Assembly (NCBI GenBank): GCA_964505525.1
Contig: CAZDIQ010000001.1
Span: 5,544 to 69,543 of the forward strand
Length of the DNA: 64,000 nucleotides
Reading direction: 5' to 3'
Source of the DNA: an uncultured Acidimicrobiaceae bacterium
Lineage (GTDB): Bacteria > Actinomycetota > Acidimicrobiia > Spongiisociales > UBA5794
The first letter of the stretch is position 1. Each line of letters opens with the position of its first letter. A program made the position numbers and the translations under genes. The notes under the pieces are model-generated. The model saw only the letters and a list, made by a program, of their open reading frames with translations, did not search any database and was not told where the DNA came from. This document shows positions 43 through 63,915 of the stretch, in pieces.

Positions 43-3000
43 TCAGCCGCCAAGCTGTGCGAGGATGCCCGGCAGTTGCACATTGACCCGGTCGTCGACC
101 GTAGCAACCATCCGCGTCCGGACCGGGTCGCTGATACCAGCAGCAGCGAGCCGCCGATCGAACCCGGCGACGTCGAAACCCTGCAACTTCGACAACTGGA
201 ACGCCGCCTCCTGATCCGACATGTCGCCATACAGGCGCCGACCCTGAGTCGACGACCGCAACGTCGACGGTTCCACCCACGTCTTGCCCGGAGCGAACGA
301 CGGCTTGTCGGCACCCATCGCCCGGTACTGGCCGGAGCCGCCGACGTCAATCCGGTACAAGGTGCCACCAGACGTGAGGACGTTGTCGCCGCCCATCCCG
401 TACGCATCCCACGACGACGCCAACGCGTCAGCGTGGAACCCGTTACGTGCCTGCATCTGAATGTCCGGGGTCACGTCCGAACCGACGATCTTGCCGAGCG
501 AACCGTCCGGTTCCTGGATCGCCTTCTTCGCGATGAACGACCGGCCCTCATGATCGAAGATGGCGGTGTCGTCCACCGGGACGCCCAGCTGCCGGTACAG
601 CATCTGTGATGCCAACTCGGACTCGGCGTGCTGACGGGACTGGGCGGGCTTCACAAGATACTTCTGGCCGTCCTCGTCGCGGTACCAGCCGCCGCCGTTC
701 GAGCCGAGAGGGCCACCCGTCTTGTGCATCGCGTCGAACTCGGCCATCGACGACGGCATCGACGAGACAGGCGCATGAACCGCCTCCATCTCCGCTGCGG
801 CCGCCTTCTGCTTCTTCGTGTACGCCGCCTTCTGCCCCGGTGTCATCGAGTTGTAGTCGGTGGGCGGAACGGCCCCGCCGCTCTTGGTCCACTTCCCGTT
901 CGCGTCGCGAGGGACATCCCCCCCAGCAAACGCGAACGACACCGGGATACCCGACATCGCGATCCGTTGCGTCAACGACATCCCATGCCGTTTGCTGTCG
1001 ATCGACTCGCGGGCACCGAACAGACGGGCCTGGCCGAGCAGCTGAGTCATCGGCACCGAAACTTCAACGACACGCATCCGGCGCGGAGACTCACCGACCG
1101 ACAGCGTCGCCTCCGCCGCCCAACGATGATGCCCGTCGAGAATGAACCCGTCCGCTGACACCATGACCGGCTTATCGCCGGGCTCCATCCGGCCGGAATG
1201 AATCGCTGTGATCATCTGGCCGACCTTGCGGCCGTCCAGCTGGTTCTGCGTCGCACGCAGTTCGGCCGGGTCCTTCGTCGTCACCCGGCTAGTGATCCCC
1301 CGCTCACCGAGGTAACCGACGAAGTCATCAACCCGGTCCGACGGGATCTGCGGCATGTCATGACGAGCCAACTGATTGTCGGCCACCGCCCCGAACAGAT
1401 TCGGGTGACCGTCGATCGTCACCTTCGTCAAGTCGGACGAACCTGGCCGGGTACCCAACTCCTCGATCAACGGGACAGCAGCAGCCGAACCGACGGTCAC
1501 CTTGCCGCCGTCGATGATGACGTCTGCGTCACCGACTGCCGAGGCGTGAGCAACGCCACCGCCCCTCGCCCAGCGGCCCCACGAATCGCGGGGGACGTCC
1601 GACGACTTGAACACGACCGTCCCGGTGGCAGCAAACTCGCCGAGCCCAGACCCGCTCTCCACGATCGTCGCGCGCGGTTCCCGCTTCGAGATACCGGTGT
1701 TGTCGATCACGATCCACTCGTCCATCAAGCCGCGGGACGACCGGAAGTTCTCGAAGTTCTTCGTCGACCCGTTCGGCAGACGCGACTGTTCGATGTACGA
1801 ACCCGGCACGTAACGGCCGCCGTCCTGCCACCGCTTGAACGCGGACGCCTTCGACTCGGACACCGGGACCTTCACGAACACGCCACGCACCGAGTAGCCG
1901 TCGTTACGGAAGTTGCCGATATCACGGGCCGGACTCGACGCCATCGTCTTGTCGATGACGACGTTCATGCCACGAGCACGAGCCTCGATCACCATGCGGT
2001 CAGCGATGTGACCGGACTCGACATGCAGCAATGCGGCATGTTCCCCGTCCGTCATGCCCGGCACCCGTCGCACCATCCCCCGGTCCAACATCTCCTGCTT
2101 CACGCCGTCCGGGTCGATATGCAGGAAGCCGTCCGAGTCGACGAACGAACCACGCGTCTCGCGGCCACGATGGAAACCGTCAGGATGATTCAAGGCCGAA
2201 CCCTTACCTGCCCCCGGAGGCCCACCCAGGAACACGACCTCACGGTCGTAACGTGCGTCGCCGGACATCATCTTGTCGATGATCTCGTTGTGTTGTGCTG
2301 TGCGTTCAGCCGTCCATTCGTTGCCCGGCAACGCGTCATGTTGAGCGACCGTCGAAGCCGGGCCGTGCATATCCAGGTTCTCCAACACGGCGCTCCGGGC
2401 GTCGCCGACATCCGGGGCCGCAGCCAACCGATCGGAAAGATCGGAGATCGCCACATCAGTCTGAGCCGACGTAGCCCGACCAATCTGAGCGTCGCCGTGC
2501 AAGTCCGGGGCGCCGACCCCGCCCGCAGTCGGACCCTGCTGCGGTGCGCCCGGCGCCGAAGCGCACCCGGCACCCTTACACCACTTGCCGTCCGGTGCAC
2601 GCGGGACACCAGCCGTCGGGCCACCACCACGGTTACCACGGAACTCGGCGCGCTCGCCGCCGCAGGTAGGGCACACCGCGAACAACCGGAACGTGCGGAC
2701 CTGGTCACCCTCCCAGAACATGATCTCGTCGAACTCGACACGGCCGGAACCGTCACCGAGCGTCACGCCCCGAGACTTCTCGACGGTGAGCCCGGCCGCT
2801 GCCAGACTCGCAACCAACACCGACTGGGCGTCGCCCATCTCAACGAGCGGCCCCATCACGCCCTGACCGATCACGTCGCAGGAGAACGGGGCGACCCCCG
2901 CCGAGAACTCGTCCAACGACGCGGCGAGCACAGCAGCGTCGGCGTCGACAACAGCCGCCAGCGCAGTCACCTGATCGGATCGGAACGCGACGGTGAGCAC
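43..3000 (-). CDS. Polyvalent virion/cargo protein: zeta-toxin-like P-loop kinase + ParB-type nuclease + C-terminal kinase-like domain
   Basis: 985-aa ORF. Walker A 'VVFLGGPPGAGKGS' in a zeta-toxin/AAA-kinase-like context. 'ILDGHHRWAAEA' matches the ParB N-terminal nuclease DGHHR motif. C-terminal 'GGDNVLTSGG..YRIDVGGSG' resembles the HxDNxL / DFG catalytic loops of PI3/4-kinase or HipA-like kinases (weak). Carries three 'VPRDxxGKW' motifs and one 'TPGQKAAYTKK' motif shared with the neighbouring MuF protein. Confidence 0.6.
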   Translation of the reverse strand: MLTVAFRSDQVTALAAVVDADAAVLAASLDEFSAGVAPFSCDVIGQGVMGPLVEMGDAQSVLVASLAAAGLTVEKSRGVTLGDGSGRVEFDEIMFWEGDQVRTFRLFAVCPTCGGERAEFRGNRGGGPTAGVPRAPDGKWCKGAGCASAPGAPQQGPTAGGVGAPDLHGDAQIGRATSAQTDVAISDLSDRLAAAPDVGDARSAVLENLDMHGPASTVAQHDALPGNEWTAERTAQHNEIIDKMMSGDARYDREVVFLGGPPGAGKGSALNHPDGFHRGRETRGSFVDSDGFLHIDPDGVKQEMLDRGMVRRVPGMTDGEHAALLHVESGHIADRMVIEARARGMNVVIDKTMASSPARDIGNFRNDGYSVRGVFVKVPVSESKASAFKRWQDGGRYVPGSYIEQSRLPNGSTKNFENFRSSRGLMDEWIVIDNTGISKREPRATIVESGSGLGEFAATGTVVFKSSDVPRDSWGRWARGGGVAHASAVGDADVIIDGGKVTVGSAAAVPLIEELGTRPGSSDLTKVTIDGHPNLFGAVADNQLARHDMPQIPSDRVDDFVGYLGERGITSRVTTKDPAELRATQNQLDGRKVGQMITAIHSGRMEPGDKPVMVSADGFILDGHHRWAAEATLSVGESPRRMRVVEVSVPMTQLLGQARLFGARESIDSKRHGMSLTQRIAMSGIPVSFAFAGGDVPRDANGKWTKSGGAVPPTDYNSMTPGQKAAYTKKQKAAAAEMEAVHAPVSSMPSSMAEFDAMHKTGGPLGSNGGGWYRDEDGQKYLVKPAQSRQHAESELASQMLYRQLGVPVDDTAIFDHEGRSFIAKKAIQEPDGSLGKIVGSDVTPDIQMQARNGFHADALASSWDAYGMGGDNVLTSGGTLYRIDVGGSGQYRAMGADKPSFAPGKTWVEPSTLRSSTQGRRLYGDMSDQEAAFQLSKLQGFDVAGFDRRLAAAGISDPVRTRMVATVDDRVNVQLPGILAQLGG

Positions 3001-3013
3001 GACCAGATGCTAG

Positions 3014-3256
3014 TCAGACGGCATCCGGGAGAGCGTCGTACACGGCCCGCGCTTCCTCCTCGGTCATCAACCCGAGATGCTGCGCCGACGTGATCGTCGC
3101 GTTCGACACGTTGTTCACCACGTCAGCGCCGCCGTCCGTCTCCGGATACTGCGGGGTGTCCCGATACACGAACTGGGCTGCCGCCGCAGCACCAAACTCC
3201 TCCAACGTGAACTCGCCGTCATGCAACCGTTCGAGCAGAGCGAGGAGCTTGTTCAC
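3014..3256 (-). CDS. hypothetical small acidic protein (80 aa); possible immunity/chaperone for adjacent toxin proteins
   Basis: ORF with non-Arg-rich composition, sandwiched between the MazF-like and polyvalent genes and 3 nt upstream of the polyvalent gene. No recognisable motif. Confidence 0.35.
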   Translation of the reverse strand: MNKLLALLERLHDGEFTLEEFGAAAAAQFVYRDTPQYPETDGGADVVNNVSNATITSAQHLGLMTEEEARAVYDALPDAV

Positions 3257-3990
3257 GAATCCAGTGTACGAGAACGACCGACACGGAACCGGCGCATCCT
3301 CAGCTGCACCTTCGGTGCCCCCTGCCGTTCGGTCAGATTGTCGATGATGTCCTGGAACACCGGCTTCTTCACGTAGGCACCCTCACGCCGATAGTTGACG
3401 TCGTCGATCTGCACGAACCGGTCCAGCTTCAAGAACGACTCCCGCTCCGACTTGTCCCAGTCACCCGAACCGATCGACGGTCGGTCACCGTCACGCCCAG
3501 CCTTCGACGTCAACTGCACACCGACCAGGTTCTTGCCGTCCTTCGTCCGTCCGATGATCAGCACCGGACGGTCCTTCGACTGGCGCGGGTCCTCCTCGAA
3601 CGGCACCCTGGCCCACACGATCTCGCCGGGGTCGGCGTGACCGTCCGGGTGGCGCGGCCGGTACGCGATCCGAACGTCCTCGAACGGGACATCCGGAAGA
3701 ACACCAGCCGGACGCGTCGGACCGCCAGGCGGCGGCGGGATACGACGACCAGGCGGCGGCGGGATCGGACGACCGGAACCGCCCGGCCCACGAGTCCAGC
3801 GGCCATCCGAGTCGCGTGGCACATCAGCCGACCCGGCAGCGACCAAAGCCTCCTCGACCGGCGGATAGACGTACGGGTCGAAGTCCGGGTCGTCGTCAAC
3901 GATGTCCGCCCACCACTCGATCACCGTCGACGCGGCACCGTCGCTGACGATCTCCAACTCGGTGTCAGCCATCCGCGCTTGCGTACTCAT
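3253..3990 (-). CDS. MazF/PemK (Kid)-like mRNA-interferase toxin domain protein with N-terminal 'VPRD..GRW' motif and Pro-rich linker
   Basis: C-terminal 'GEIVWARVPFEEDPRQSKDRPVLIIGRTKDGKNLVGVQLTSKAG' aligns to the Kid/PemK core 'GEIWLVSLDPTAGHEQQGTRPVLIVTP...VVPVTSGG'. N-terminal ~110 aa contain 'ADVPRDSDGRWTRG' and 'RPIPPPPGRRIPPPPGG'. ATGA overlap with upstream MuF gene. Confidence 0.55.
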   Translation of the reverse strand: MSTQARMADTELEIVSDGAASTVIEWWADIVDDDPDFDPYVYPPVEEALVAAGSADVPRDSDGRWTRGPGGSGRPIPPPPGRRIPPPPGGPTRPAGVLPDVPFEDVRIAYRPRHPDGHADPGEIVWARVPFEEDPRQSKDRPVLIIGRTKDGKNLVGVQLTSKAGRDGDRPSIGSGDWDKSERESFLKLDRFVQIDDVNYRREGAYVKKPVFQDIIDNLTERQGAPKVQLRMRRFRVGRSRTLDS

Positions 3991-6900
3991 CAGTCGACCA
4001 ACTCCACTTCCATGTACCGGTAATGGCGTCCCTGGTTGCCGTAACTGTCGCCCGGCGTGATGTGATCAGAGATCATCGTCACTCGATACTTGCTGTTCGC
4101 GGGCATGATCGTCTCCGACTCGTGCGTGTAGGACACCAATGATGGCACCCGCCGCGAATCGGTGAGCTTCACGATGACACGACGGTTGCCATGATCGGAG
4201 AACGACTCGGCGATGTTGAGGTCAACCGACCATGACCCGAACCCCTTGTCGACGTAGACGTCGCCGACCTTCAAGTCCAATTCCTGCATCGTCGAACCCG
4301 AACCGGAACCCTTGCCCCGATACATCTGCCGGGGAGCCGGTGTCGCCGCAGGCCCCTTGTACGCCGACTTCATGTCGGCGACCTTCTTGGTCACAGCAGG
4401 GCCGTGACTCTCGCCGCGTTTCATCGTGCCGTTCATCGGCCCGTACCCGGACCCGCCATACGAGTCGATGGCATACCGCTGATCCGTCGTCAGCTTCGCT
4501 GATTGAGCCGACTGACGTTGCGAATGGTGACCCTTACCGACGTCCTCGCCCTTCAACGGTCCGGCAGCCTTCACCGAGTTCATGAACGACTCGCGCGCGG
4601 CGCCCCCGGTGTAGGTGTGGACCTCGTGCGCTCCAGCCGGACCGGACGTCTTCGCGCCCTTCAAGTTCTGGCCCTTCGTGTACGCCGCCTTCTGCCCGGA
4701 CGTCCACGAATCCCACTCCGGAGGCTTCGGAGTTTCGAACTTGTTCGGCTGCTTCGGGTTGTTCTTCTTCGTCCACGCCGCCTTCTGACCCGGAGACATC
4801 GACGACCAGTTCGCTGGCTTACCGACCGCGCCCGGCGCGGCGACAACCGGCACAGCCGTCGGCTTCGCCGGGAACCCGGAGGCCACCCCGTTCTGCATCT
4901 TCGCCGTCGCCAGATGCGAACGAGGGATCTGTTCGTCCTGATAACCGGACGCTTTCAAAGCAGAGACGTTCGCCTGATAGTCGGCCTCATGAAACTTGGC
5001 AAGCGACGCCCGTTCTTCCGGGGTGTGACTCGCCTTGACCTGATCGACGGACTTGCCGGAGTGGTGAGCGATCAGAGCGGCCCGCTTCTCATCCGACATG
5101 GCGTCGATCTGGTCATCGGTGAACATGACCCGAGCCCCCGTCGGGTTCGGGCCACCCGTCGGTCGACGTTCCCCCGTCTCACGCAACACGGCACGACGAG
5201 ACTCCCTCGGCCCGGCCGCGTGCCCGTCGTTGTAGCCCAACTGTTCGTTGAGCACCTTGCGGTCAGCGATGTGCTGATCGTTCATCGCGCGCATGGCGTC
5301 GCGACGCTCGTCCGGAGTTGACGGCGTCAGCTTCGGAGCGTTCTTCGCCAGGTAGGCGTCGACCGTCGCGTCCGACGCCCCGTCCACGTCCGGCTTGTCC
5401 AACGTCCTACCACCGTCGATCTTCGAGGAGATGTGGAACTGCTTCATCTCCTCCAATTCGGCGGCCTTCGCCAGCTTCTCCTGTTCGGCGTCGTACGCCG
5501 CCTGCTTCGCCGCGGCAGCCATAGCAGCGTTCTTCTTCTTCGTGGCGGCCGCCTTCTGCCCCGGCGTCATCGGAGACATGTCCATCTCCAACTGGCCGTT
5601 GCACTGTGCGCCTTTGCACCACTTCCCGGTCGGGTCGCGAGGCACCGCGGCAGCCGACGCGGTCACCGCCTCGATCCAGCCACCACAGTCCGGGCACATC
5701 ATCGACGCCGACGCGACCAACGGATCATCCAAGTCGTAGATGTGATCCGGGTCAACGACCTCACCGCCGACGATCCACTGGTCATACGCACCGAAGAACG
5801 GCGACACCCGCCGCGTCGCGAGGAGCCCCTGGACGGGCTGATCGAAGACGTCCAAGTCCGGGTCGTCCCAGCCAAGTGGGAACGCCACCACTTCGTCGTC
5901 GATCCGGTCAGTCGCCTCGGCCTCCGTGAGCGCGGCGAACCGGACACGAATCACCGACAGGCCAGCAGCCTCCCAGGACGGCCGTACCGGATACGGCTTC
6001 TCCCCGCGATGCTTGTTGCAGCCCGAGCATGACGGGATCAGGTTCGGGAACGACTTGATTCCACCGTACGATCCGCCTTCGTTCAACGTCAGGATCTTGT
6101 CCTGCTCCATCGACGCGTGACCGCCGCGTCCCTTCGGGGACGTCTTGATCCCGCAGTGAGTGCACGGCACATACCCGCGCTTGTTACCGCCGTACTCGTC
6201 GAACAAGGCTTCGCCGCGGGCGCGGCGTGTCGCCGCCGAACCACGGTTGTCGCCACCCGCCCGGCCCTTACCTTCCTTCGCTTTCTGGGCCTGCTCCTTA
6301 TTGTGGGCGATCTTCTCCGCTGACGGCTGCGGCACATCGCGGGCCTTCTGATTCGACAGGGCCTGCGTCTCGGCTAGCTCGGCTTCCGACGCGAACCATT
6401 CGGCCGGGGCCGACACACGAGCCTGCGGCGACTTCTTCGCGAACTCGGCCGCGTCCATCGTCTCCAACATCTGGCCTTCGTTGCACTGTGCGCCTTTGCA
6501 CCACTTCCCGGTCTGGTCGCGTGGCACCGCAGCGATCCCGGCAGCGAACTCCGACGGCACTTCTGGCAGGCCGCACCGGGCACATACCGAAACGGTCGAA
6601 GCGATGAGGACCTCGCCTGGCAGTGAGATGGGCTGAATGGTGTCTGAATCGACCGGTATGCCGTTCACGACGTACTGCGTGTAGTCCAGGTCATCGACAT
6701 AGTTGACGGTGAGAGGACCGACGAGAGTGGTCAACCGTGGCAGGTCGTCACGGGTGAGAGCGAAGTCGCCTCCGCCGATCATGTCCCAGCCGTAAGCCCG
6801 AGCCGACACGGTCTGACCGTCGACCCATCCGGCAGCGGCCACGAGCCCGCTAGCAGCCCGGAAACAGGACGTGCACGACGGCAGCAGATTCCCGGCAGCG

Positions 6901-8228
6901 AGCGACCCTCCCGCCGACCACGGCACGATCGGTTCCGGGACGATCATCGCCATCCCGGCCGTCGGGTCATCAGTCAGCTTCAACCCGCAATGCACACACG
7001 GCACGAAGCCACGGTCGTTCCCCCCGAACTCGGCGTACAGGTCCGAACGAGCCCGGTTCCGGGCAGTGACCGACGGTGCCCGCGTCGACCCGGACAACTC
7101 GACCCGGCCAGCACGGCCCCGCTTGTACCGGGCACGCTTCTGAGCGGCACCGAACACGGCCCGCGGCGAATAACCCTGCGCGGTGAGAACCGTGTCCGAG
7201 CCGCGCATCGTCGCTCGTAGCTGCTGGATCAGCTGACCACGAGTCATCGAATGACGACCGACAATCCCTTCACCGCGGGCGTAGGCGAGCAAGGTCGAAC
7301 GGTTCATCTGATCGAACCGGTCCGGGCAGTCCGGGCCTCCCGCCAACCCTTGCAGGCAGAGGGCGCGCAGCACCGCGGCTTGCAGTTCGCCACGGTTCAT
7401 CGTCGACCGGCCGTCGATCGACAAGGTTTGCGCCTTCGCTGTCAGTTCGGCCTTCGTCGCGCCGATCACGCGGCGGGCCTCGGAGCCTTCGACGTAGCCA
7501 AGCTCGCACCGGCAGTTCACCCTCAACTCGAACGGCAGCAGCGGGTCGCCGGGGTAGCGGGCCTGGTAGCCGCCGACTGTGAACGTCGACCCGAACGGGA
7601 CCGTTTCCTGGTCGGCTGCGGCATGCTCGAACCTGACCCGGATATCTCGTTGCGTGATCCAACGCAACGCCGCGGGCTGCGCGTCCTGCATCCCTTCGAA
7701 CAGGCCGCCGTTCGCTGCGCCCTGCAACTCGGTGCGAGCCACCTGATCGGCGATCGCGTCAGTGAACGGCCCGTCCGTCGTCAGTCCCTCGCGGACCGAG
7801 GCAGCATCCCATGCCAGCCCGGACTGTTCACGAGCAGCGATCCATTGATCGAGTCGCAACCGGATCGACGGGGCATAGTCGATCAGGCCAAGCAGTTCCG
7901 ACGCGGCATGACCTACCCGCAAACCGAGCACACCGAGCACACCGAACGTGAGCACCCCGGCCATCAGACCGTCCAAGGTGGCGTCGCCCATCTCGTCGGA
8001 GATGTGCTCGGTGATGATCTCCTCCCACTCGTCGTCGGTGATCAGCTGCTCGTCGTTCGCTGCGGCCGTGAGCGTGCCATGCCGGGCAGCGATCCGCGGG
8101 GCCACCAGGTCCGCGGCAGCCTGGTAGGCGCGCCGGAACGCTTCGAGGCCGACCAGCCATGTCTCGTCGTCGAGCAGCTGGACTGGTTCGGAGTCGACCG
8201 CTTCGGCCAAGTCCATCGCCACGGTCAC
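3990..8228 (-). CDS. MuF-like minor capsid protein / polymorphic toxin with C-terminal ADP-ribosyltransferase (exoenzyme R-S-E type) domain
   Basis: 1412-aa ORF immediately downstream of portal. 'ELRVNCRCELGYV' matches the MuF/SPP1 gp7 CRC signature. Two Cys-rich 'YVPCxHCG...NLxPSCxxC' modules. C-terminal ~200 aa carry 'YRG' (Arg), 'GFGSWS' (STS-like) and 'THESETI' (ExE), the ordered catalytic triad of C3/Vip2-type ARTs. Repeated 'VPRDxTGKWCKGAQCN' and 'PGQKAA(A/W/Y)TKK' motifs. Confidence 0.65.
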   Translation of the reverse strand: MTVAMDLAEAVDSEPVQLLDDETWLVGLEAFRRAYQAAADLVAPRIAARHGTLTAAANDEQLITDDEWEEIITEHISDEMGDATLDGLMAGVLTFGVLGVLGLRVGHAASELLGLIDYAPSIRLRLDQWIAAREQSGLAWDAASVREGLTTDGPFTDAIADQVARTELQGAANGGLFEGMQDAQPAALRWITQRDIRVRFEHAAADQETVPFGSTFTVGGYQARYPGDPLLPFELRVNCRCELGYVEGSEARRVIGATKAELTAKAQTLSIDGRSTMNRGELQAAVLRALCLQGLAGGPDCPDRFDQMNRSTLLAYARGEGIVGRHSMTRGQLIQQLRATMRGSDTVLTAQGYSPRAVFGAAQKRARYKRGRAGRVELSGSTRAPSVTARNRARSDLYAEFGGNDRGFVPCVHCGLKLTDDPTAGMAMIVPEPIVPWSAGGSLAAGNLLPSCTSCFRAASGLVAAAGWVDGQTVSARAYGWDMIGGGDFALTRDDLPRLTTLVGPLTVNYVDDLDYTQYVVNGIPVDSDTIQPISLPGEVLIASTVSVCARCGLPEVPSEFAAGIAAVPRDQTGKWCKGAQCNEGQMLETMDAAEFAKKSPQARVSAPAEWFASEAELAETQALSNQKARDVPQPSAEKIAHNKEQAQKAKEGKGRAGGDNRGSAATRRARGEALFDEYGGNKRGYVPCTHCGIKTSPKGRGGHASMEQDKILTLNEGGSYGGIKSFPNLIPSCSGCNKHRGEKPYPVRPSWEAAGLSVIRVRFAALTEAEATDRIDDEVVAFPLGWDDPDLDVFDQPVQGLLATRRVSPFFGAYDQWIVGGEVVDPDHIYDLDDPLVASASMMCPDCGGWIEAVTASAAAVPRDPTGKWCKGAQCNGQLEMDMSPMTPGQKAAATKKKNAAMAAAAKQAAYDAEQEKLAKAAELEEMKQFHISSKIDGGRTLDKPDVDGASDATVDAYLAKNAPKLTPSTPDERRDAMRAMNDQHIADRKVLNEQLGYNDGHAAGPRESRRAVLRETGERRPTGGPNPTGARVMFTDDQIDAMSDEKRAALIAHHSGKSVDQVKASHTPEERASLAKFHEADYQANVSALKASGYQDEQIPRSHLATAKMQNGVASGFPAKPTAVPVVAAPGAVGKPANWSSMSPGQKAAWTKKNNPKQPNKFETPKPPEWDSWTSGQKAAYTKGQNLKGAKTSGPAGAHEVHTYTGGAARESFMNSVKAAGPLKGEDVGKGHHSQRQSAQSAKLTTDQRYAIDSYGGSGYGPMNGTMKRGESHGPAVTKKVADMKSAYKGPAATPAPRQMYRGKGSGSGSTMQELDLKVGDVYVDKGFGSWSVDLNIAESFSDHGNRRVIVKLTDSRRVPSLVSYTHESETIMPANSKYRVTMISDHITPGDSYGNQGRHYRYMEVELVD

Positions 8229-10312
8229 ACTCCGACAGGAGCGAGGACAGCCTGCTCGACGATCCCCGCGACCATTGCCTGCGGGACGCGCAGCCCGTTG
8301 ACCGGACGGATATCACGCAACAGGTTGTCTTCGGCGTACTGCTGCATGTCCTCGGCCAGCCGGAACGCTGCGAACGATGCCCGGTCAGCAGCGTCGCGCG
8401 GTTCGAACCCGACTCCTTCCAGATAGTCGGACATCCAGGCCCGAGTCTGAATGGACAGTTCATCCCACGCGTCCTTCAACAGCACCTTCGGCGTCAGGGA
8501 GAACTCGGTCAACTCGCCAGCGGTGACCATCGACATGACCTGCGTCGCACGGACGTGCTTCACCCGGTCACGCAGGATCGGGTTCTTCGTCTTCGCCAGA
8601 TTCACGATCCGGTTCCCGGCGCGTTCCATCGCCCGGCCGAGAGCGGCGTCAGCGGCAGTCGTCAACCGTTCAACCATCATCGACGCGACCACAGCCTCAT
8701 CAACGTTCGCCGGTTCCTCCGAACCGGTAGCAGGCACAGTCTCATCGGGTGCCACCGGATCGTTCTCCGTCGTCTCGTTGTCGAGCGGGGTGCCGACCTG
8801 GCCGATCTGCTCCGCGTCGACGTCCTCCATGCCAGAGATCAACGGCAGCAACTTCGCGTACACCGCTGGCTGCGTCGACACCAGCTGCCACAGACGACGC
8901 TGACGGATCGTGTCCTTCGACGCCAGGTCGGCCTTGCTGAACCCGTTGGCCGTGAGAATCGCCTCGTCCGACAGCCAGTCAGCAAGGTCACGGGCCGACT
9001 TCGCTTCGTCATTCCGGGCGATGACCGGCGACGGATCAAACTCAACCTTGAACCCGGCGGCCTCCTCCTCAGACATGCCCTCGAACGCCATCAGCATCGG
9101 ACGCAGATACGAGTTCGTGATGAAGTCGGCGATCAGCTGCCCGATCGGCTGGATGTGCTTGACGATGAACTCGGCGTCGATGTTCGCTGCGGTCCAATGA
9201 TTCGCCGTCGACTTGCCGGACACGATCTCCGGAGGGGCGTCCAAGCCTGCCGCCAACCGGCCGAGCGCCTCTTGACGGAGCGACTGCAACGACAAGGCAT
9301 CCAGGTCGCGGGCCAGCACGATGATCTCAATCCCGGAGCCGCCCTCGCGGCGTGGCCCGGTGATCGCCAACGGCATTACCCGTGACGCCGACGTCGGGTC
9401 GAGCAGCGGGGCCGTCATGTGTTCGAACAGTTCGTCGACGAAGTCCGGTTCGCCGTCCTCGACGTCAGGGTCCGAGTCGTCGAGCGGCGTCGCGCCCATC
9501 ACCTGCAAGTCGTCCGGGATGTAGATGAGGTTCGCCGGGATACGCGACTTAGCGATGGCGTCGACCACCTGTGTGAGCGTGACGATCTCCTGCAAGATGG
9601 GCAGAACCCGGCGAACCTCAGAGTCAGCCAGATCCGAGTAACGCGGCGACGACCGCCAGATACGAGCCGTGTACGACTCGTCGTCCATCGGGACGGCCTC
9701 TGTGAAGTTCGCCCGCTTCCGCATCAACTTGCCTTCGGCGTCAACGTAGACCTCGTCGACCGACAGGAACTCCCACACCAAGTCCTGGTTCTCGTCGTTC
9801 GTGCCGCACAGATGCGCCTCACCCGTGCAGTACAAGTTCCAGGCGCAGCGGCGCACAAGGTCTTCCATGCCGCCCTGCGGGCCGACGAACGCCCGCATCA
9901 CGTTCGACGGCCGGTCGTCGTAGTCGTCGTCGGTTTCGTCCTTGTCGTCGATGGCCGGGTCGTTCGCCAGCCAGCTGGCCTGTTCCTTCGACCACTTCCG
10001 GACCGGGAACGAGCACAACGACACAGTGTTCGCCTGCAAGTTCAGCACCGCCCCGAGTTCCCCGACCTCGATCGCGAAGTCCATCGACTTCTGCTGCCAC
10101 GTCCGGTCGGTCTTCGACATGAGCCGACGCCGCGAACGGATGACCCGATCCTCGTCGCTGATCTTGCGGAGCGCCGACGACGACACTTTCGGGTTCCGGG
10201 ACGGTTGCTGCATCGCGAACTCGACCGGCTTCGTGGAGAACAGACGCTTCTTGCCCTCATCCAACGACACAGGCTTCTTCGGTTGACGCGCCATCGGCGT
10301 CACGCTACTCAA
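8225..10312 (-). CDS. portal protein
   Basis: 695-aa acidic protein directly upstream of the MuF gene; size, position and composition typical of portal proteins. No motif-level proof. Confidence 0.5.
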   Translation of the reverse strand: MSSVTPMARQPKKPVSLDEGKKRLFSTKPVEFAMQQPSRNPKVSSSALRKISDEDRVIRSRRRLMSKTDRTWQQKSMDFAIEVGELGAVLNLQANTVSLCSFPVRKWSKEQASWLANDPAIDDKDETDDDYDDRPSNVMRAFVGPQGGMEDLVRRCAWNLYCTGEAHLCGTNDENQDLVWEFLSVDEVYVDAEGKLMRKRANFTEAVPMDDESYTARIWRSSPRYSDLADSEVRRVLPILQEIVTLTQVVDAIAKSRIPANLIYIPDDLQVMGATPLDDSDPDVEDGEPDFVDELFEHMTAPLLDPTSASRVMPLAITGPRREGGSGIEIIVLARDLDALSLQSLRQEALGRLAAGLDAPPEIVSGKSTANHWTAANIDAEFIVKHIQPIGQLIADFITNSYLRPMLMAFEGMSEEEAAGFKVEFDPSPVIARNDEAKSARDLADWLSDEAILTANGFSKADLASKDTIRQRRLWQLVSTQPAVYAKLLPLISGMEDVDAEQIGQVGTPLDNETTENDPVAPDETVPATGSEEPANVDEAVVASMMVERLTTAADAALGRAMERAGNRIVNLAKTKNPILRDRVKHVRATQVMSMVTAGELTEFSLTPKVLLKDAWDELSIQTRAWMSDYLEGVGFEPRDAADRASFAAFRLAEDMQQYAEDNLLRDIRPVNGLRVPQAMVAGIVEQAVLAPVGV

Positions 10313-14698: not shown

Positions 14699-14925
14699 TG
14701 TGGTTGCTCCATCAGGTCGGTTCGGTGGACGCGGGCTTCGTGGAACGTGACGTCACCGTCGCCGGTTGACGACGTCGCGCCGACCGAGCCGGTCACCGAA
14801 GCGGTGAGCGCAGCGGAACGGGCTTCGGCCAGGCAGTCGAGGCAGTCGTCGTGGAGCCAGGAGACGACCGTCCAGTAGTCCGGTTCAGTGCCGTCGTCGT
14901 TGTATTTGCCGATGCCGAACGTCAT
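14698..14925 (-). CDS. hypothetical small protein (about 76 aa)
   Basis: In-frame real-looking C-terminal part of track ORF 14695..15465; start ATG overlaps stop of upstream gene (ATGA). Confidence 0.35.
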
Positions 14926-16340
14926 GCTGCAACTCGATTCTTGCGTGTCCAGGCGGCCTTGCGGCCAGCGGTCCAGGTGTCGAAGTCGGCGGGCTTCTCG
15001 CCAGCGACGGTGACCGGAGCGGTCACGGCGACGGTGTGCTCCGGGCAGTGCGGCGTGTATCCCTTCGTGTCGGCGGTGGCGTACACGTCGTTGCGACAGC
15101 CCGACTGTTCGCACTGGTGAGCGACGAACGGGATCAGGTTCCCGTCGGCGTCGACCGGGGCCAGCTTGACCAGCTTGCATTCGGTCTGCTTGCCCCACTT
15201 CGGGTCGTCGATGTGGTTCTTCACCTTGCCGGTCCAACGGACCCGGTCGCCGACCCTGACGCCCCACAGGTCGTTGCCTGAACCGAACGTCGTGACGACG
15301 CCTTCGTCGGTCTGGACCGTGACCCGCTTCGAGGCGCCGTACGCCGTTTCGACGGTCAGTTCCACGATCACTTCGCCGATGACGACGATCTTCTCGCCGA
15401 CCTGGCCGATGAAGTTCTGGGGCCGTTCGGCCTTCGTCTCGGCCTCCTCGGTGTCCTTCCGCCACACGAACGGCAGAGCAGCCAGCAGGCCCGTCATGCG
15501 ACGGGAAACCTTCCCGGCGCTCAATGCCAGTTTGGCGTTGTAGATGAAGTCGCTGTCGTTCGCCGACTTCGTTTCCAGCCAGGCGACGACCTGATCGGCG
15601 TCGGCCCGACCGGCCGAGAGGTCGAAGCCATGAAACACTTCCGCCATCCGCTTCGCGGTCGTGCCGTAAGCGATCTCATCGGCCCGGTCACGGGTCGGCC
15701 AACCCTCGCTGGTCTTCGTGAAACCGTGGATGCGGGTCACCGCGGCGGCGATCGCGAGGTACTCCATCGGAAGAACGACGGGCTTCGCATGCCCCTGGAA
15801 GTCGTCGTCGTCGAAGAACCCGACGACCGCTTCACGGAGCCACAGGACGTTGGCCGGGTCGACACCGAGGAACTCCAACACGCAGGTCGTGCCGACAGCG
15901 AGCCACCGTTCGTCGTCGTGGCGGAACACGATCGTCGTGTTCCGTTTGACGTTGATCCCGCAGTGATCGCACAGCGAACCACGGAACCGGAACTCGTCCG
16001 GCAGGGCGATCTCGTCGGTGATCGCGCCGGGAAACAAGGCGACCCAGGCTTCACCGTCGACCAGAGTGTGGTCCAGGACGGCGATCGGAGCCCATCCGGC
16101 GTGGCGGGCTTCGAAGCCGTGGACGGTGACCTCGTCGTACTCGGTCCAGGTGCGCTTGATCCCGGTGACTTCGTCGTGTTCCTCGACGGTGACGATCTCG
16201 CCGAAGGTGACGGTGGCGGCCGGGGCGCCCAGTTTGGCGAGCCGCTTGTTCATCTTGACCAGCTTCTCGTTCACCTTCGCCGTGGCATCCGTGCGGATGC
16301 CGCGGACGGTGTGATCCACGGGGAACAGTTCAATCGTCAT
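14922..16340 (-). CDS. hypothetical protein (about 473 aa), Cys cluster, C-terminal 'TWTAGRKAAWTRKNRVAA' motif
   Basis: Long clean ORF preceded by conserved leader copy A (SD GAGAGGAAG). 'CDHCGINV...TTCVLEF' Cys motif. C-terminus shares the PGQKAA-TKK motif family. Confidence 0.5.
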   Translation of the reverse strand: MTIELFPVDHTVRGIRTDATAKVNEKLVKMNKRLAKLGAPAATVTFGEIVTVEEHDEVTGIKRTWTEYDEVTVHGFEARHAGWAPIAVLDHTLVDGEAWVALFPGAITDEIALPDEFRFRGSLCDHCGINVKRNTTIVFRHDDERWLAVGTTCVLEFLGVDPANVLWLREAVVGFFDDDDFQGHAKPVVLPMEYLAIAAAVTRIHGFTKTSEGWPTRDRADEIAYGTTAKRMAEVFHGFDLSAGRADADQVVAWLETKSANDSDFIYNAKLALSAGKVSRRMTGLLAALPFVWRKDTEEAETKAERPQNFIGQVGEKIVVIGEVIVELTVETAYGASKRVTVQTDEGVVTTFGSGNDLWGVRVGDRVRWTGKVKNHIDDPKWGKQTECKLVKLAPVDADGNLIPFVAHQCEQSGCRNDVYATADTKGYTPHCPEHTVAVTAPVTVAGEKPADFDTWTAGRKAAWTRKNRVAA

Positions 16341-16346
16341 GGGCAC

Positions 16347-16407
16347 TTCCTCTCTCGATCCGACAAAGTAAGTGTACCACGATCTGCTACAGAACGCAAC
16401 GGTCGGG
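16347..16407 (-). promoter_or_regulatory. conserved promoter/leader module copy A
   Basis: About 80% identical over 55 bp to 19680..19740; contains GTAcCA-N5-TGCTAC and SD GAGAGGAAG. Confidence 0.55.
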
Positions 16408-16770
16408 TCAGCGTTTCACGGCACCCGGTAGCTGTTCGATGTCGAGCAGGTCACGCCACACCCGGTGGAGAATCTGAGCGAACCCTCTCGAATGCTTCCG
16501 GAGGACCGCATCCTTGAAGTTGTCGTAGTCGATGTCCGCGGCTAGCTCGACGAGAGCAGCCTGCCACACGGTCCGTGGGATCGTAATGCGGTAGCGGTAG
16601 TCGGACTGACCGGGCTTCGATTCGACGATCTCGTCATCCCGATCGTCGAGCGCCTCGGTCTGCGTGAGAAAGACCAGGTCGGTGTACGACCTGGCCCGCA
16701 CCATGATGAGGTCAGGGTCGTCGCGGTGCTCGACCGCCGAGTACATGCCGAGAGTAGTGATGATCCACAT
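16408..16770 (-). CDS. hypothetical protein (120 aa)
   Basis: ORF between clamp gene and 473-aa gene. Confidence 0.4.
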   Translation of the reverse strand: MWIITTLGMYSAVEHRDDPDLIMVRARSYTDLVFLTQTEALDDRDDEIVESKPGQSDYRYRITIPRTVWQAALVELAADIDYDNFKDAVLRKHSRGFAQILHRVWRDLLDIEQLPGAVKR

Positions 16771-19054: not shown

Positions 19055-19332
19055 TTGTCGATGGTCACACGGGCCAGGTTCTCGGCGTCGAGGCCGTACC
19101 CGCCGTGACCGGCCTCGGCGAGAACGGACGTCTTCGCACCGCGGGTCTTGCTGATGCGGACGGCGTACTCGTCCGACGGGAGGAGTTCGACGAACAGGTG
19201 GGCTGTCGCGTGGGCGAAGCCCATCTTGAAGCGGACGGTGTTGGCGTCGACAATCGTCGCCTCACGCAGTCCGAGTTCCATGAACGTCCGGATGCCCAGC
19301 TGGGCTTGAAGTTGGGCGTAGTCGATGCTCAT
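19021..19332 (-). CDS. hypothetical protein
   Basis: ORF in operon. Confidence 0.35.
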   Translation of the reverse strand: MSIDYAQLQAQLGIRTFMELGLREATIVDANTVRFKMGFAHATAHLFVELLPSDEYAVRISKTRGAKTSVLAEAGHGGYGLDAENLARVTIDKWVAVCDQKGW

Positions 19333-19673
19333 GCTGCGGCCCGCAGCTTCTTCGTGAGGGCGGCCTTCTGACCGGGGGTCAGTCCTTCGTACAGGTTGCT
19401 GACGTCCTCCTGGACGGCGACGAGACGCAGATTGACACCGACGGTGATCCGGTCGTCGTTCCGGAACGAGCGGGTCTTCTCGCGGCCGGGCTGCCCGCCG
19501 AACACGGTGAGTTCGGTGCCGCCGTGACGGGCGTACCGGAACTTGAATGGGAACTGTTCGCCGTCGACGTTGATCAACGCTCCGAGGGTCATCAGGTCAC
19601 CGGTCGTGGTGCTGGCGGTGGCCTCGTGGCCGAGGTTGACCTTCCCCATCTTGCGACTGGTTATTGCGGTCAT
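19329..19673 (-). CDS. hypothetical protein ending in 'LTPGQKAALTKKLRAAA'
   Basis: First gene after conserved leader copy B (SD GAAGGAG 7 nt from ATG); C-terminal shared motif. Confidence 0.5.
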   Translation of the reverse strand: MTAITSRKMGKVNLGHEATASTTTGDLMTLGALINVDGEQFPFKFRYARHGGTELTVFGGQPGREKTRSFRNDDRITVGVNLRLVAVQEDVSNLYEGLTPGQKAALTKKLRAAA

Positions 19674-19679
19674 CTGCAC

Positions 19680-19740
19680 TCCTTCTCTCTCGATCCGACA
19701 AGTTCAGTGTAGCAGGTCATGCTACGTAACGCAAATCGTG
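19680..19740 (-). promoter_or_regulatory. conserved promoter/leader module copy B
   Basis: Contains perfect GTAGCA-ggtca-TGCTAC (19709..19725) and SD GAAGGAG. Confidence 0.55.
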
Positions 19741-19822
19741 ATGCGAGAGAGCCCGCCCGGCCTGCCGGGTACAAACCGGCAACCGGACGGGCTCGACTCC
19801 CAGCGGACTGGGAGGAAGTTGC

Positions 19823-63159: not shown

Positions 63160-63915
63160 TCAGCTGGACCCGCAAGCCCGCAGCGCCGAGGCGTACGGTG
63201 CACGGGCACCCGACGGGCAAACCACCGAGTCGATGCGGACCGATTCGCAACCGAGCATCGCGAAGCCGATCCACTCCTCCATGAACATGGCGAAGTCGTT
63301 CGTCTTGTTGAGCGTGTGGTCACGGACCAGGCCGAGGTCGAGAGTGCCGCCGTCGAGCCGGACGAACGTGCCCGGCGCAAACAGGAAGCTCGTGACTTCC
63401 AGCGGGAAGTCGTTGAGGTCACCCTCGATCTGCGGGTCGGCGAGCGTGTTCAACGCCTCGGTCGACGTCGGGTCGTCGTAGTAGAACGTGACGTCCAGGT
63501 TCCGGACCGAAAGCGCTTCGGTCACGGCCGAGTCCGGCACGTTCATGTAGTCGAGGCCCTGCGACCCGTCGTTGAACAGGTCGGCCTTGACCAGATCGAT
63601 CGACCAGTCCGGCATCAGAGCGTTGAGACGTGCCCCTCGCGGCATGTGGTGACGCTTCCGGTAGCCGACCGCTGCGACCGTCAGGTCGTAGAGCAGGCTA
63701 CGAGAAGCACCGTACGAGCCGATGCCGTTGGCGTGCGTCGAATGCGCGTCGATGGCGTCGAGGTAGTACCTCTGCTTCTTCAACGTGAACTGGACGGCGA
63801 CGTCCTCCTGGAAGTTCTCGATCAACTCCGGGAACGTCCGGTATTGGAGGTTGTCGAACAGCGTGCACTGCGTGATCGCCTCCACGAGCACTTCGTCGAT
63901 CTCCGGGCATGTCAC
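63160..63915 (-). CDS. hypothetical structural protein (possibly capsid-related; may extend beyond window)
   Basis: ORF at window edge. Confidence 0.25.
   Translation of the reverse strand: MTCPEIDEVLVEAITQCTLFDNLQYRTFPELIENFQEDVAVQFTLKKQRYYLDAIDAHSTHANGIGSYGASRSLLYDLTVAAVGYRKRHHMPRGARLNALMPDWSIDLVKADLFNDGSQGLDYMNVPDSAVTEALSVRNLDVTFYYDDPTSTEALNTLADPQIEGDLNDFPLEVTSFLFAPGTFVRLDGGTLDLGLVRDHTLNKTNDFAMFMEEWIGFAMLGCESVRIDSVVCPSGARAPYASALRACGSS

Follow-up and report, generated by a model that had tools for sequence, protein, structure and literature searches.

A widespread header motif marks effector-module boundaries in phage cargo proteins and is distinct from a predicted basic-helix motif

The closest described relatives of the proteins analyzed here are the polyvalent proteins of phages and conjugative elements, which combine at least two disparate activities in one polypeptide (Iyer et al. 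2017, PMC5512222), and the MuF polymorphic toxins, in which an N-terminal MuF domain is joined to a C-terminal toxin (Jamet et al. 2017, PMC5576092; Zhang et al. 2012, PMC3482391). Such proteins, and toxins fused to the portal protein, are thought to be injected together with the phage DNA, which raises the question of how their domains are packaged, separated and exchanged. Several proteins of these kinds are encoded on the stretch of 64,000 nucleotides studied here (the window; contig CAZDIQ010000001.1, assigned to an uncultured Acidimicrobiaceae bacterium), a phage genome segment of ~64% GC with most genes on the minus strand. An initial annotation had noticed two short peptide motifs, here named M1 and M2, that recur in these cargo proteins, M2 occurring also on two proteins encoded elsewhere in the window. 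We find that M1 marks the boundaries of effector modules and is, judged from alignments, the local form of a header spread over many phyla, and that M2 is a separate motif, predicted to form a basic helix.

The proteins bearing the motifs, together with the portal protein, are encoded as follows.

8225-10312, minus strand: portal protein (phrog_776, E=2e-79), directly upstream of the cargo genes
3990-8228, minus strand: MuF-type polyvalent cargo protein of 1412 amino acids (aa), identified by Pfam and PHROG matches
3253-3990, minus strand: MazF/PemK-like toxin of 245 aa (Pfam PemK_toxin at residues 121-218)
43-3000, minus strand: polyvalent protein of 985 aa (Pfam Zeta_toxin at residues 254-423, phrog_2859 at residues 487-660)
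14922-16340, minus strand: early/replication-region protein of 473 aa (phrog_2319), carrying an extra Cys-rich segment and, at its C-terminus, an M2 tail
19329-19673, minus strand: DUF7246-like protein of 114 aa, with a predicted SH3/KOW-like beta-barrel, a helix and a C-terminal M2 helix

The genes of the head-module locus are arranged in the order portal, MuF protein, MazF-like protein, an open reading frame (ORF) of 80 aa, and 985-aa protein. The 985-aa gene is immediately followed, just beyond the window, by a gene for a 494-aa protease-like protein (5600-7084 of the 72-kb source contig, L151). A related viral contig encodes a protein with 60% identity to it, and this relative matches a head-maturation-protease PHROG (E=6e-31). 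The cargo genes are therefore phage genes located beside virion genes, with the portal upstream and the protease-like gene downstream. The 1412-aa and the 985-aa protein each unite at least two disparate activities. In the 1412-aa protein the MuF domain is followed by two HeH/Rho-N-like motifs, a tandemly duplicated module (HNH, middle part, and Cys-knuckle with M1), M2, a helical region, two more M2 copies and a C-terminal ADP-ribosyltransferase (ART), so that an N-terminal MuF domain is combined with a C-terminal toxin. Residues 142-258 of this protein match PHROG head-morphogenesis families (E=4e-21), the Pfam Phage_Mu_F match reaches only E=0.016, under its cut-off, and ADPrib_exo_Tox matches residues 1242-1394 (E=7e-7). 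The 985-aa protein consists of an N-terminal domain, a Cys-knuckle with M1, a Zeta-toxin kinase, M1, a ParB-like module, an M1-M2 composite and a kinase-like C-terminal domain; the ParB-like module corresponds to the phrog_2859 region, which shows the sequence DGHHRW. The toxin domain of the 245-aa protein is preceded by an acidic extension at the N-terminus, by M1 and by a linker rich in proline. These Pfam and PHROG matches bear out the domains originally assigned (MuF, two HNH-like and ART; PemK/MazF; Zeta toxin and phrog_2859), and the cargo proteins of the window are further members of the polyvalent and MuF-toxin kinds.

All six reading frames of the window were scanned with the regular expressions VPR[DA]..G[KR]W for M1 and [TS][PSA]G[QR]KAA.T[KR][KG] for M2. 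Each expression matched exactly six times, always within a real gene, and the M1 matches were all on the minus strand; relaxed versions of both expressions gave 0 additional matches in any frame of the window. Based on the amino-acid composition of the window ORFs (18,032 aa), 1.9e-4 matches to M1 and 1.1e-6 matches to M2 are expected by chance. The copies found by the scan are the following.

2581-2607, minus strand: M1 copy GVPRAPDGKW within CPTC...CKGAGC, 985-aa ORF, kept in the 985-aa ortholog P0004
1570-1596, minus strand: M1 copy DVPRDSWGRW, 985-aa ORF, between the Zeta and ParB-like modules
889-915, minus strand: M1 copy DVPRDANGKW, 985-aa ORF, first half of an M1-M2 composite
811-843, minus strand: M2 copy MTPGQKAAYTKKQ, 985-aa ORF, 14 residues past M1
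3796-3822, minus strand: M1 copy DVPRDSDGRW without Cys, MazF-like ORF
6501-6527, minus strand: M1 copy AVPRDQTGKW, MuF ORF, with CxxC before and CKGAQC after it
5619-5645, minus strand: M1 copy AVPRDPTGKW, MuF ORF, CKGAQC after it, first half of an M1-M2 composite
5535-5567, minus strand: M2 copy MTPGQKAAATKKK, MuF ORF, 17 residues past M1
4764-4796, minus strand: M2 copy MSPGQKAAWTKKN, MuF ORF, first of a doublet ahead of the ART domain
4671-4703, minus strand: M2 copy WTSGQKAAYTKGQ, MuF ORF, second of this doublet
14940-14972, minus strand: M2 copy WTAGRKAAWTRKN, C-terminus of the 473/474-aa protein, which ends RVAA
19347-19379, minus strand: M2 copy LTPGQKAALTKKL, C-terminus of the 114/116-aa protein, which ends RAAA

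The initial annotation had counted three M1 copies in the 985-aa protein, two in the MuF protein and one in the MazF-like protein, and three M2 copies in the MuF protein, one in the 985-aa polyvalent protein and one at the C-terminus of each of the 473-aa and 114-aa proteins; the scan recovered exactly this distribution. The wording given for M1 needs adjustment in two places. VPRD is found in five copies and the sixth reads VPRA, and the proposed extension TGKWCKGAQCN is present in the two MuF copies only, the first copy of the 985-aa protein having the similar GKWCKGAGC. Pairwise BLAST similarity among the five bearer proteins is limited to 12-67 residues around the motifs, which agrees with the view that these proteins are otherwise unrelated and that the motifs are non-random. 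M1 and M2 form a composite, 14-17 residues apart, at two places, one in the 985-aa and one in the MuF protein. Three of the six window M1 copies contain four Cys in the arrangement CxxC...VPRDxxGKW-CxxxxC, a putative zinc ribbon or Cys knuckle, and three contain none; P, R, D, G and W are (nearly) invariant among the copies while their codons vary. The earliest M1 copy in any window protein is at residue 57, and most are internal. The M1 position at 889-915 reads WCKGAxC in P0004 and in P0021, a relative in which the C-terminal module is a separate gene (see below). Of the M2 copies, the doublet ahead of the ART domain is kept in the relatives P0002, P0003 and L007, and the copy at 811-843 is drawn as a helix by AlphaFold2 with low confidence.

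The exact window form of M1 is rare in IMG/VR, where it was found at 8 loci, including relatives with both motifs in several large ORFs (L005, L007 and L009). When a profile built from the twelve window copies was run in full with HMMER against 1.84 billion representatives, it yielded 72 proteins at E<=1e-3, many of them 1000-3800 aa long with 4-8 copies; a word-indexed protein search with the short motif alignment produced 26 candidates, none of which scored. Alignment of 191 M1 instances gave the consensus K[YF][SDN][PE]D-Q-P-R-D-[ED]-x-G-R-W-T-x-G-G-G. The median spacing between copies in giant polyvalent proteins is 252 residues, and the first copy is located at most 45 residues from the N-terminus in 24 of 47 database proteins. 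M1 comes after portal and MuF domains and sits just ahead of other Pfam domains, with ART, Zeta, nuclease and kinase-like modules behind it. Pfam analysis of the 26 largest M1-bearing matches gave ART-PolyVal (6), DUF7178 (6), ADPrib_exo_Tox (4) and MuF (3) as the most frequent families, with DRAT also among the commonest, while one or two proteins each had InPase, topoisomerase IB, Acb1 or Zeta. M1 copies in general lack Cys, and one position alternates between WCKGAGC and WTKSGGA when the 985-aa protein is compared with P0004.

A scan at the DNA level for QPRDxxGRWT found at least 120 loci on viral contigs and at least 120 loci in bacterial and archaeal genomes, the latter including, among the matches listed, Alphaproteobacteria, Actinomycetota, Chloroflexota, Myxococcota and Desulfobacterota as well as Neisseria, Prevotella, Ruminococcus and a Thermoplasmatales bin. 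The flanks of the listed matches, which the search pattern leaves free, have F/Y in 81 of 108 and P in 69 of 108 cases, followed by a glycine run, so that K[FY]xPD and GGGG were recovered. Since these unfixed positions reproduce the consensus, the matches are true copies. Seen in these alignments, M1 is the local form of a ~20-residue header, K[FY][DSN]P[DN]-QPRD-xx-GRWT-x-GGGG, and the idea that it is peculiar to the proteins of this phage did not hold. Pfam analysis of 74 complete M1-bearing proteins from viral contigs detected a portal domain in 21 and a MuF domain in 8; the others contain ART, Zeta, restriction-fold, nuclease, RNase A-like, colicin E5, topoisomerase IB and PI3/4-kinase-like domains. 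The claimed link of M1 with head-internal cargo is upheld by its bearers, portal and MuF fusions and toxins; the protease-like gene next to the 985-aa gene is likewise in line with the initial interpretation. None of the protease-like and neighboring proteins of L007 and L151 showed M1. The idea that a KAWxTRR-type motif generally follows M1 was rejected, as such a motif is present at 2 of 333 M1 instances, both of them window copies. Among solved chains, an M1-like string occurs only in chain Af of PDB entry 9rku, from the baseplate core of phage 7-7-1 (SQPRDASGRFAYSGG, residues 82-96). It is also the best PDB profile match for M1, a marginal one (SQPRDASGRF, E=0.025), and by sequence the similarity may be coincidental; were it genuine, this chain would show the motif in a solved structure. 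Profile searches of the PDB gave nothing for M2.

All-against-all BLAST of 165 M1 proteins shows that homology between these proteins breaks at M1. Of the internal alignment ends, 30% are located 0-25 residues past the start of M1, versus 5.5% for random positions, and 23.5% of alignment starts are located 0-10 residues ahead of M1, versus 2.2% for random positions. Among 150 alignments that span 150 residues or more, stop at M1 in both proteins and leave 100 or more residues beyond it in each, 136 are followed by unrelated downstream sequence. Individual proteins of this phage's own clade illustrate the exchange. In P0009 a MazF module 76% identical to that of the window lies inside a MuF polyprotein, flanked by two M1 copies; P0011 has an ART module like the C-terminal one of the window MuF protein, located in a Zeta protein; and P0021, a gene of its own starting 9 residues ahead of M1, corresponds to the C-terminal module of the 985-aa protein. 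Such stand-alone modules keep M1 at their extreme N-terminus. In the window itself M1 lies between domains, before the MazF, Zeta, ParB-like and C-terminal modules and at the end of both HNH modules of the MuF protein. Together these results show that M1 marks the boundaries of effector modules, which switch carriers or become separate genes there. It is a conserved header placed at the N-terminal edge of modules that are joined to head-internal proteins or encoded next to them. They also show motif behavior characteristic of the pre-toxin junctions of polymorphic toxins, as homology ends and variable modules begin at M1 (breakpoint enrichment; P0009, P0011 and P0021).

M2 was delineated in the same way. 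From 56 instances the consensus [DN]-W-x-[ST]-[ML]-[TS]-[PA]-G-Q-K-A-A-x-T-[KR]-[KR] was obtained, with an alanine-rich run after it. According to structure prediction M2 is an N-capped (T/S-P/A-G-Q) basic alpha-helix with an invariant K-A-A-x-T, and it is independent of M1. The motif forms C-terminal tails, doublets ahead of ART domains and, in proteins of ~90-300 aa, tandem arrays. A helix-turn-helix (HTH) regulator, P0062, is flanked by M2 on either side, a ParB-like protein has it at the N-terminus, and a clamp-like protein carries it at its end. Of 17 proteins with M2 as a C-terminal tail, among them the two of the window (14925-14972 and 19332-19379), 15 have Ala as the last residue and 13 have Ala-Ala. 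A tblastn search of cultured phages with M2-rich peptides gave nothing useful. The tail of the 114-aa protein is kept in 7 of 7 homologs (44-61% identical), and its residues T, Q, K, A, A and T do not vary. In the AlphaFold2 model a small barrel of the SH3/KOW type is followed by a helix and then by M2, which forms the terminal helix at a predicted local distance difference test (pLDDT) score of ~60-74. Homologs of the 473-aa protein in cultured phages cover residues 11-394 only and are without the Cys-rich segment and the M2 tail. This segment (residues ~420-455, window 14975-15080, minus strand) is rich in Cys and His (HQCEQSGC...HCPEH) and was added along with the M2 tail; P0005 has a similar Cys-rich-plus-M2 end.

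The genes of the 473-aa and 114-aa proteins had been reported to share a duplicated promoter/leader, and two copies with 80% identity are indeed present.

16350-16399, minus strand: promoter-like site with leader, preceding the 473-aa gene, 80% identical to 19685-19734
19685-19734, minus strand: the other copy of this site and leader, preceding the 114-aa gene

On the sense strand both copies consist of a -35 sequence TTGCGT, a spacer, a -10 sequence TACACT, the leader TTGTCGGATCGAGAGAG, a ribosome-binding site and ATG. The 17-nt leader is identical in the two copies (regions 16350-16415 and 19685-19750, minus strand), and the window has no third copy of the site and leader. This arrangement suggests co-regulation of the two genes or a leader element common to both.

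The explanation that accounts best for these results is that M1 is a module header of capsid-delivered effectors and M2 a separate basic-helix tether, and we consider its probability, taken as a whole, to be slightly above one half (about 0.55). M1 is best read as the header or junction of such effectors and is probably a docking or processing signal, at which cleavage may take place. It would form a short hairpin followed by a glycine linker and act within the procapsid as a docking and/or processing signal; modules fused to the portal or to MuF would be freed at M1 and then leave with the DNA. Recognition of M1 inside the procapsid is suggested because an effector fused to the portal cannot exit uncut, and because stand-alone modules keep the header at their N-terminus. 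As M1 is repeated, it would in addition serve as the junction at which modules are shuffled. For M2, the proteins on which it is found suggest a tether that probably holds its bearers to nucleic acid or to a single shared partner; such tethering would cover the injected enzymes (ART, kinase-like) as well as the two putatively co-regulated early proteins.

Several observations weigh against this explanation. First, the second M1 copy of the 985-aa protein (1570-1596) is dispensable, as it lies within a clean 16-residue insertion relative to the ortholog P0004 (54% identity). Second, capsid or scaffold Pfam families, which would be expected for a general maturation-protease site, were found in 0 of the 74 viral M1 proteins. 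Third, homologs of the 494-aa protease-like protein, sought with the sensitivity of BLAST, co-occur with M1 at one extra locus only. Fourth, AlphaFold2 predictions for the 985-aa protein (two sequences) have a mean pLDDT of 39 and place all M1 copies in the stretches of lowest confidence; given this score the model does not discriminate between a free and a packed M1. Fifth, docking and cleavage at M1 are argued from sequence and analogy, and the putative link of M2 to nucleic acid from the proteins associated with it. Finally, a fold search with the 114-aa model gave no significant match, the top hits being SH3-like barrels (KOW, Tudor, PWWP and ribosomal proteins), and the Ala-Ala ends of 13 of the 17 M2 tails could indicate a degradation tag. 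The absence of M1 from capsid and scaffold proteins, the dispensable copy and the lack of a detectable link with one protease family together weaken the view that M1 is a plain maturation-protease site, and the proposal of a general prohead-protease site of the T4 kind was not borne out.

A more far-reaching version, which we put forward tentatively and regard as possible at best, holds that M1, with its ~20 residues, is a near-universal address and release tag of the proteins that tailed phages carry in the head and inject. Every effector module, whether attached to the portal or to MuF or encoded by itself, would be docked and cut free at it in the procapsid, and in this clade M2 would then direct the enzymes so released to incoming or host nucleic acid. 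If true, the M1 sequence would by itself suffice to recognise injected effector modules in viruses of bacteria and archaea, and M1 could be used to load foreign cargo into capsids.

Alternatively, the conservation of M1 might reside in the DNA, M1 being a flexible linker or recombination scar that is kept alike by gene conversion and only enables module swaps. The duplication in the MuF gene (window 5529-7151, minus strand) speaks for such a process. Its two units (residues ~362-592 and ~641-884) share 33% protein identity, versus 95% DNA identity over 55 nt at their M1 ends (5597-5651 compared with the other copy), where even synonymous sites are near-identical. Thus, M1 has been homogenised within this gene; 55 nt of near-identity in an old duplication are a probable sign of gene conversion at the motif, and M1 evolves in concert within a gene. 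The clean 16-residue indel and the module shuffling at M1 fit this alternative as well. However, the amino-acid consensus holds across many phyla and across low- and high-GC hosts, where DNA identity cannot persist, the nearly invariant P, R, D, G and W are retained despite codon differences, and stand-alone modules retain M1 at their N-terminus. Because the consensus holds across phyla and base compositions, a pure DNA-level scar seems unlikely.

Equally improbable in our view is the interpretation of the initial annotation, according to which M1 and M2 are one capsid-targeting or head-protease signal and all five bearers are packaged. It is in line with the position of 10 of the 12 copies in three adjacent genes between the portal and the protease-like gene, with the two places where M1 and M2 are adjacent, and with the tiny PHROG "head protein" families phrog_20538 and phrog_12582, the only two families that match M2 (P0046 at E=3e-9). 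Outside the clade, however, the motifs are uncoupled: M2 lies within 70 residues of only 2 of 333 M1 instances, both of them window copies. Nor is M2 restricted to virions, since it is also found on HTH regulators, ParB-like, clamp-like and DUF7246 proteins and in tiny tandem arrays, and the 473-aa and 114-aa genes lie in the replication region behind their own shared promoter. A role of M2 as a virion-specific signal or capsid address is therefore not supported.

For M2 taken by itself, the tether has a weaker rival that we regard as quite unlikely, namely that M2 is a C-terminal tag for degradation or adaptor binding. The ssrA tag ends in Ala-Ala and is recognised by ClpX; by analogy, the Ala-Ala and Ala ends of the M2 tails and the alanine-rich runs after internal copies might set the lifetime of early proteins or injected fragments. 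Many M2 copies are internal or N-terminal, though, and the invariant part is G-Q-K-A-A-x-T and not the terminus. Chance or low-complexity matches, which have nothing but the G/A-rich flanks in their favor, can be regarded as already refuted by six observed copies of each motif against expectations of 2e-4 and 1e-6, by 0 matches in other reading frames and by the conservation of both motifs in homologs.

Other features of the locus deserve mention. The MuF protein contains two consecutive HeH (Rho-N/SAP-like) motifs at residues ~260-335 (window ~7230-7450, minus strand; TKAELTAKAQTLSIDGRSTMNRGELQAAV and NRSTLLAYARGEGIVGRHSMTRGQLIQQL), for which the Pfam Rho_N match has only E=0.013; DNA-binding motifs of this type count among the rare components of polyvalent proteins (PMC5512222). 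The C-terminal module of the 985-aa protein (residues ~740-985, window 43-780, minus strand) shows the kinase-like motifs GDNVL and IDVGGS and had no match in a Pfam scan, and Pfam PI3_PI4_kinase matches two unrelated M1-bearing viral proteins. The 80-aa ORF between the MazF-like and 985-aa genes (3014-3256, minus strand) overlaps the toxin stop codon and was called as a gene in the source contig; its product could be an antitoxin or immunity protein for a neighboring toxin. Tail, lysis and capsid genes are also present in the window. The protease-like gene is followed by early-type genes (AAA_24, DUF2786) and not by a capsid gene, and the C-terminal part of the capsid gene is located at window 63160-63915, so that the head module is split on the 72-kb genome. 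Megablast of 20 kb against cultured phages gave no match, tblastn of the MuF, portal and 473-aa proteins in search of close relatives gave distant domain matches only, and the polyvalent protein P0007 was matched by its MuF domain alone.

Pfam-A and NCBIfam contain no model of M1 or M2, and full-text literature searches with the motif strings returned nothing relevant; descriptions outside the searchable literature are possible. This agrees with the initial annotation, in which neither motif was recognised as a described domain. The M1 header and the M2 helix appear to be undescribed features of polyvalent and MuF-type proteins. M1 offers a concrete, mutable site for tests of processing and packaging, a sequence handle for injected effector modules in metagenomes, including anti-defence enzymes such as Acb1, ARTs and kinases, and an explanation for the free reshuffling of polyvalent proteins. 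M2 is a second portable element, which may send injected and early phage proteins to a common target.

The comparison with described systems places the window proteins closest to polyvalent proteins and MuF toxins. As in these, unrelated effectors (ART, Zeta, HNH, ParB-like, MazF) are found in one polypeptide behind a MuF domain, the genes adjoin the portal gene, and the products are predicted to be packaged and injected. In addition, M1-rich database proteins carry the polyvalent hallmark domains ART-PolyVal, InPase and Acb1. The recurring M1 header, the presence of M1 after portal domains and M2 extend that picture; no header motif between modules was found in the searched parts of PMC5512222, PMC5576092 and PMC3482391.

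Small basic elements on DNA-associated proteins offer a parallel for M2. Short basic DNA-binding arms or tails are known, for instance on SPP1 gp7, which binds DNA and the portal. Like these, M2 is a small, predicted basic helix found on DNA-associated domains and on a MuF-family protein. It is distinguished from them by its fixed consensus GQKAAxT[KR][KR], its N-cap and the aromatic residues upstream; its DNA binding is putative.

With regard to M1, two kinds of signals are comparable. T4 has a capsid targeting sequence with a gp21 cleavage motif, and in phiKZ and SPN3US a prohead-protease motif is common to many head and ejection proteins. M1 resembles these in being a short linear signal shared by unrelated head-internal proteins, with a protease gene in the same module, and its bearers include ARTs, as does the set of T4 head-internal proteins with the injected Alt. 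Unlike the signals of T4, phiKZ and SPN3US (for head-protein processing in the latter see PMC7411985), M1 is unrelated in sequence, and is internal and repeated as well as N-terminal, and none of the 74 viral M1 proteins examined has a capsid or scaffold domain; cleavage of M1 would be by analogy with them.

Polymorphic toxins possess pre-toxin junction motifs, such as VENN in CdiA and PxxxxDPxGL in Rhs proteins. M1 is not a member of a described motif of this kind (VENN, DPxGL or PT-HINT), and no Pfam or NCBIfam model matches QPRDxxGRW. It shares with the VENN and DPxGL junctions the arrangement of a conserved short motif upstream of a variable toxin, at which homology breaks and cassettes are exchanged. 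M1 differs from them in sequence, in its probable delivery by the phage head, in its many copies per protein and in its presence on stand-alone modules.

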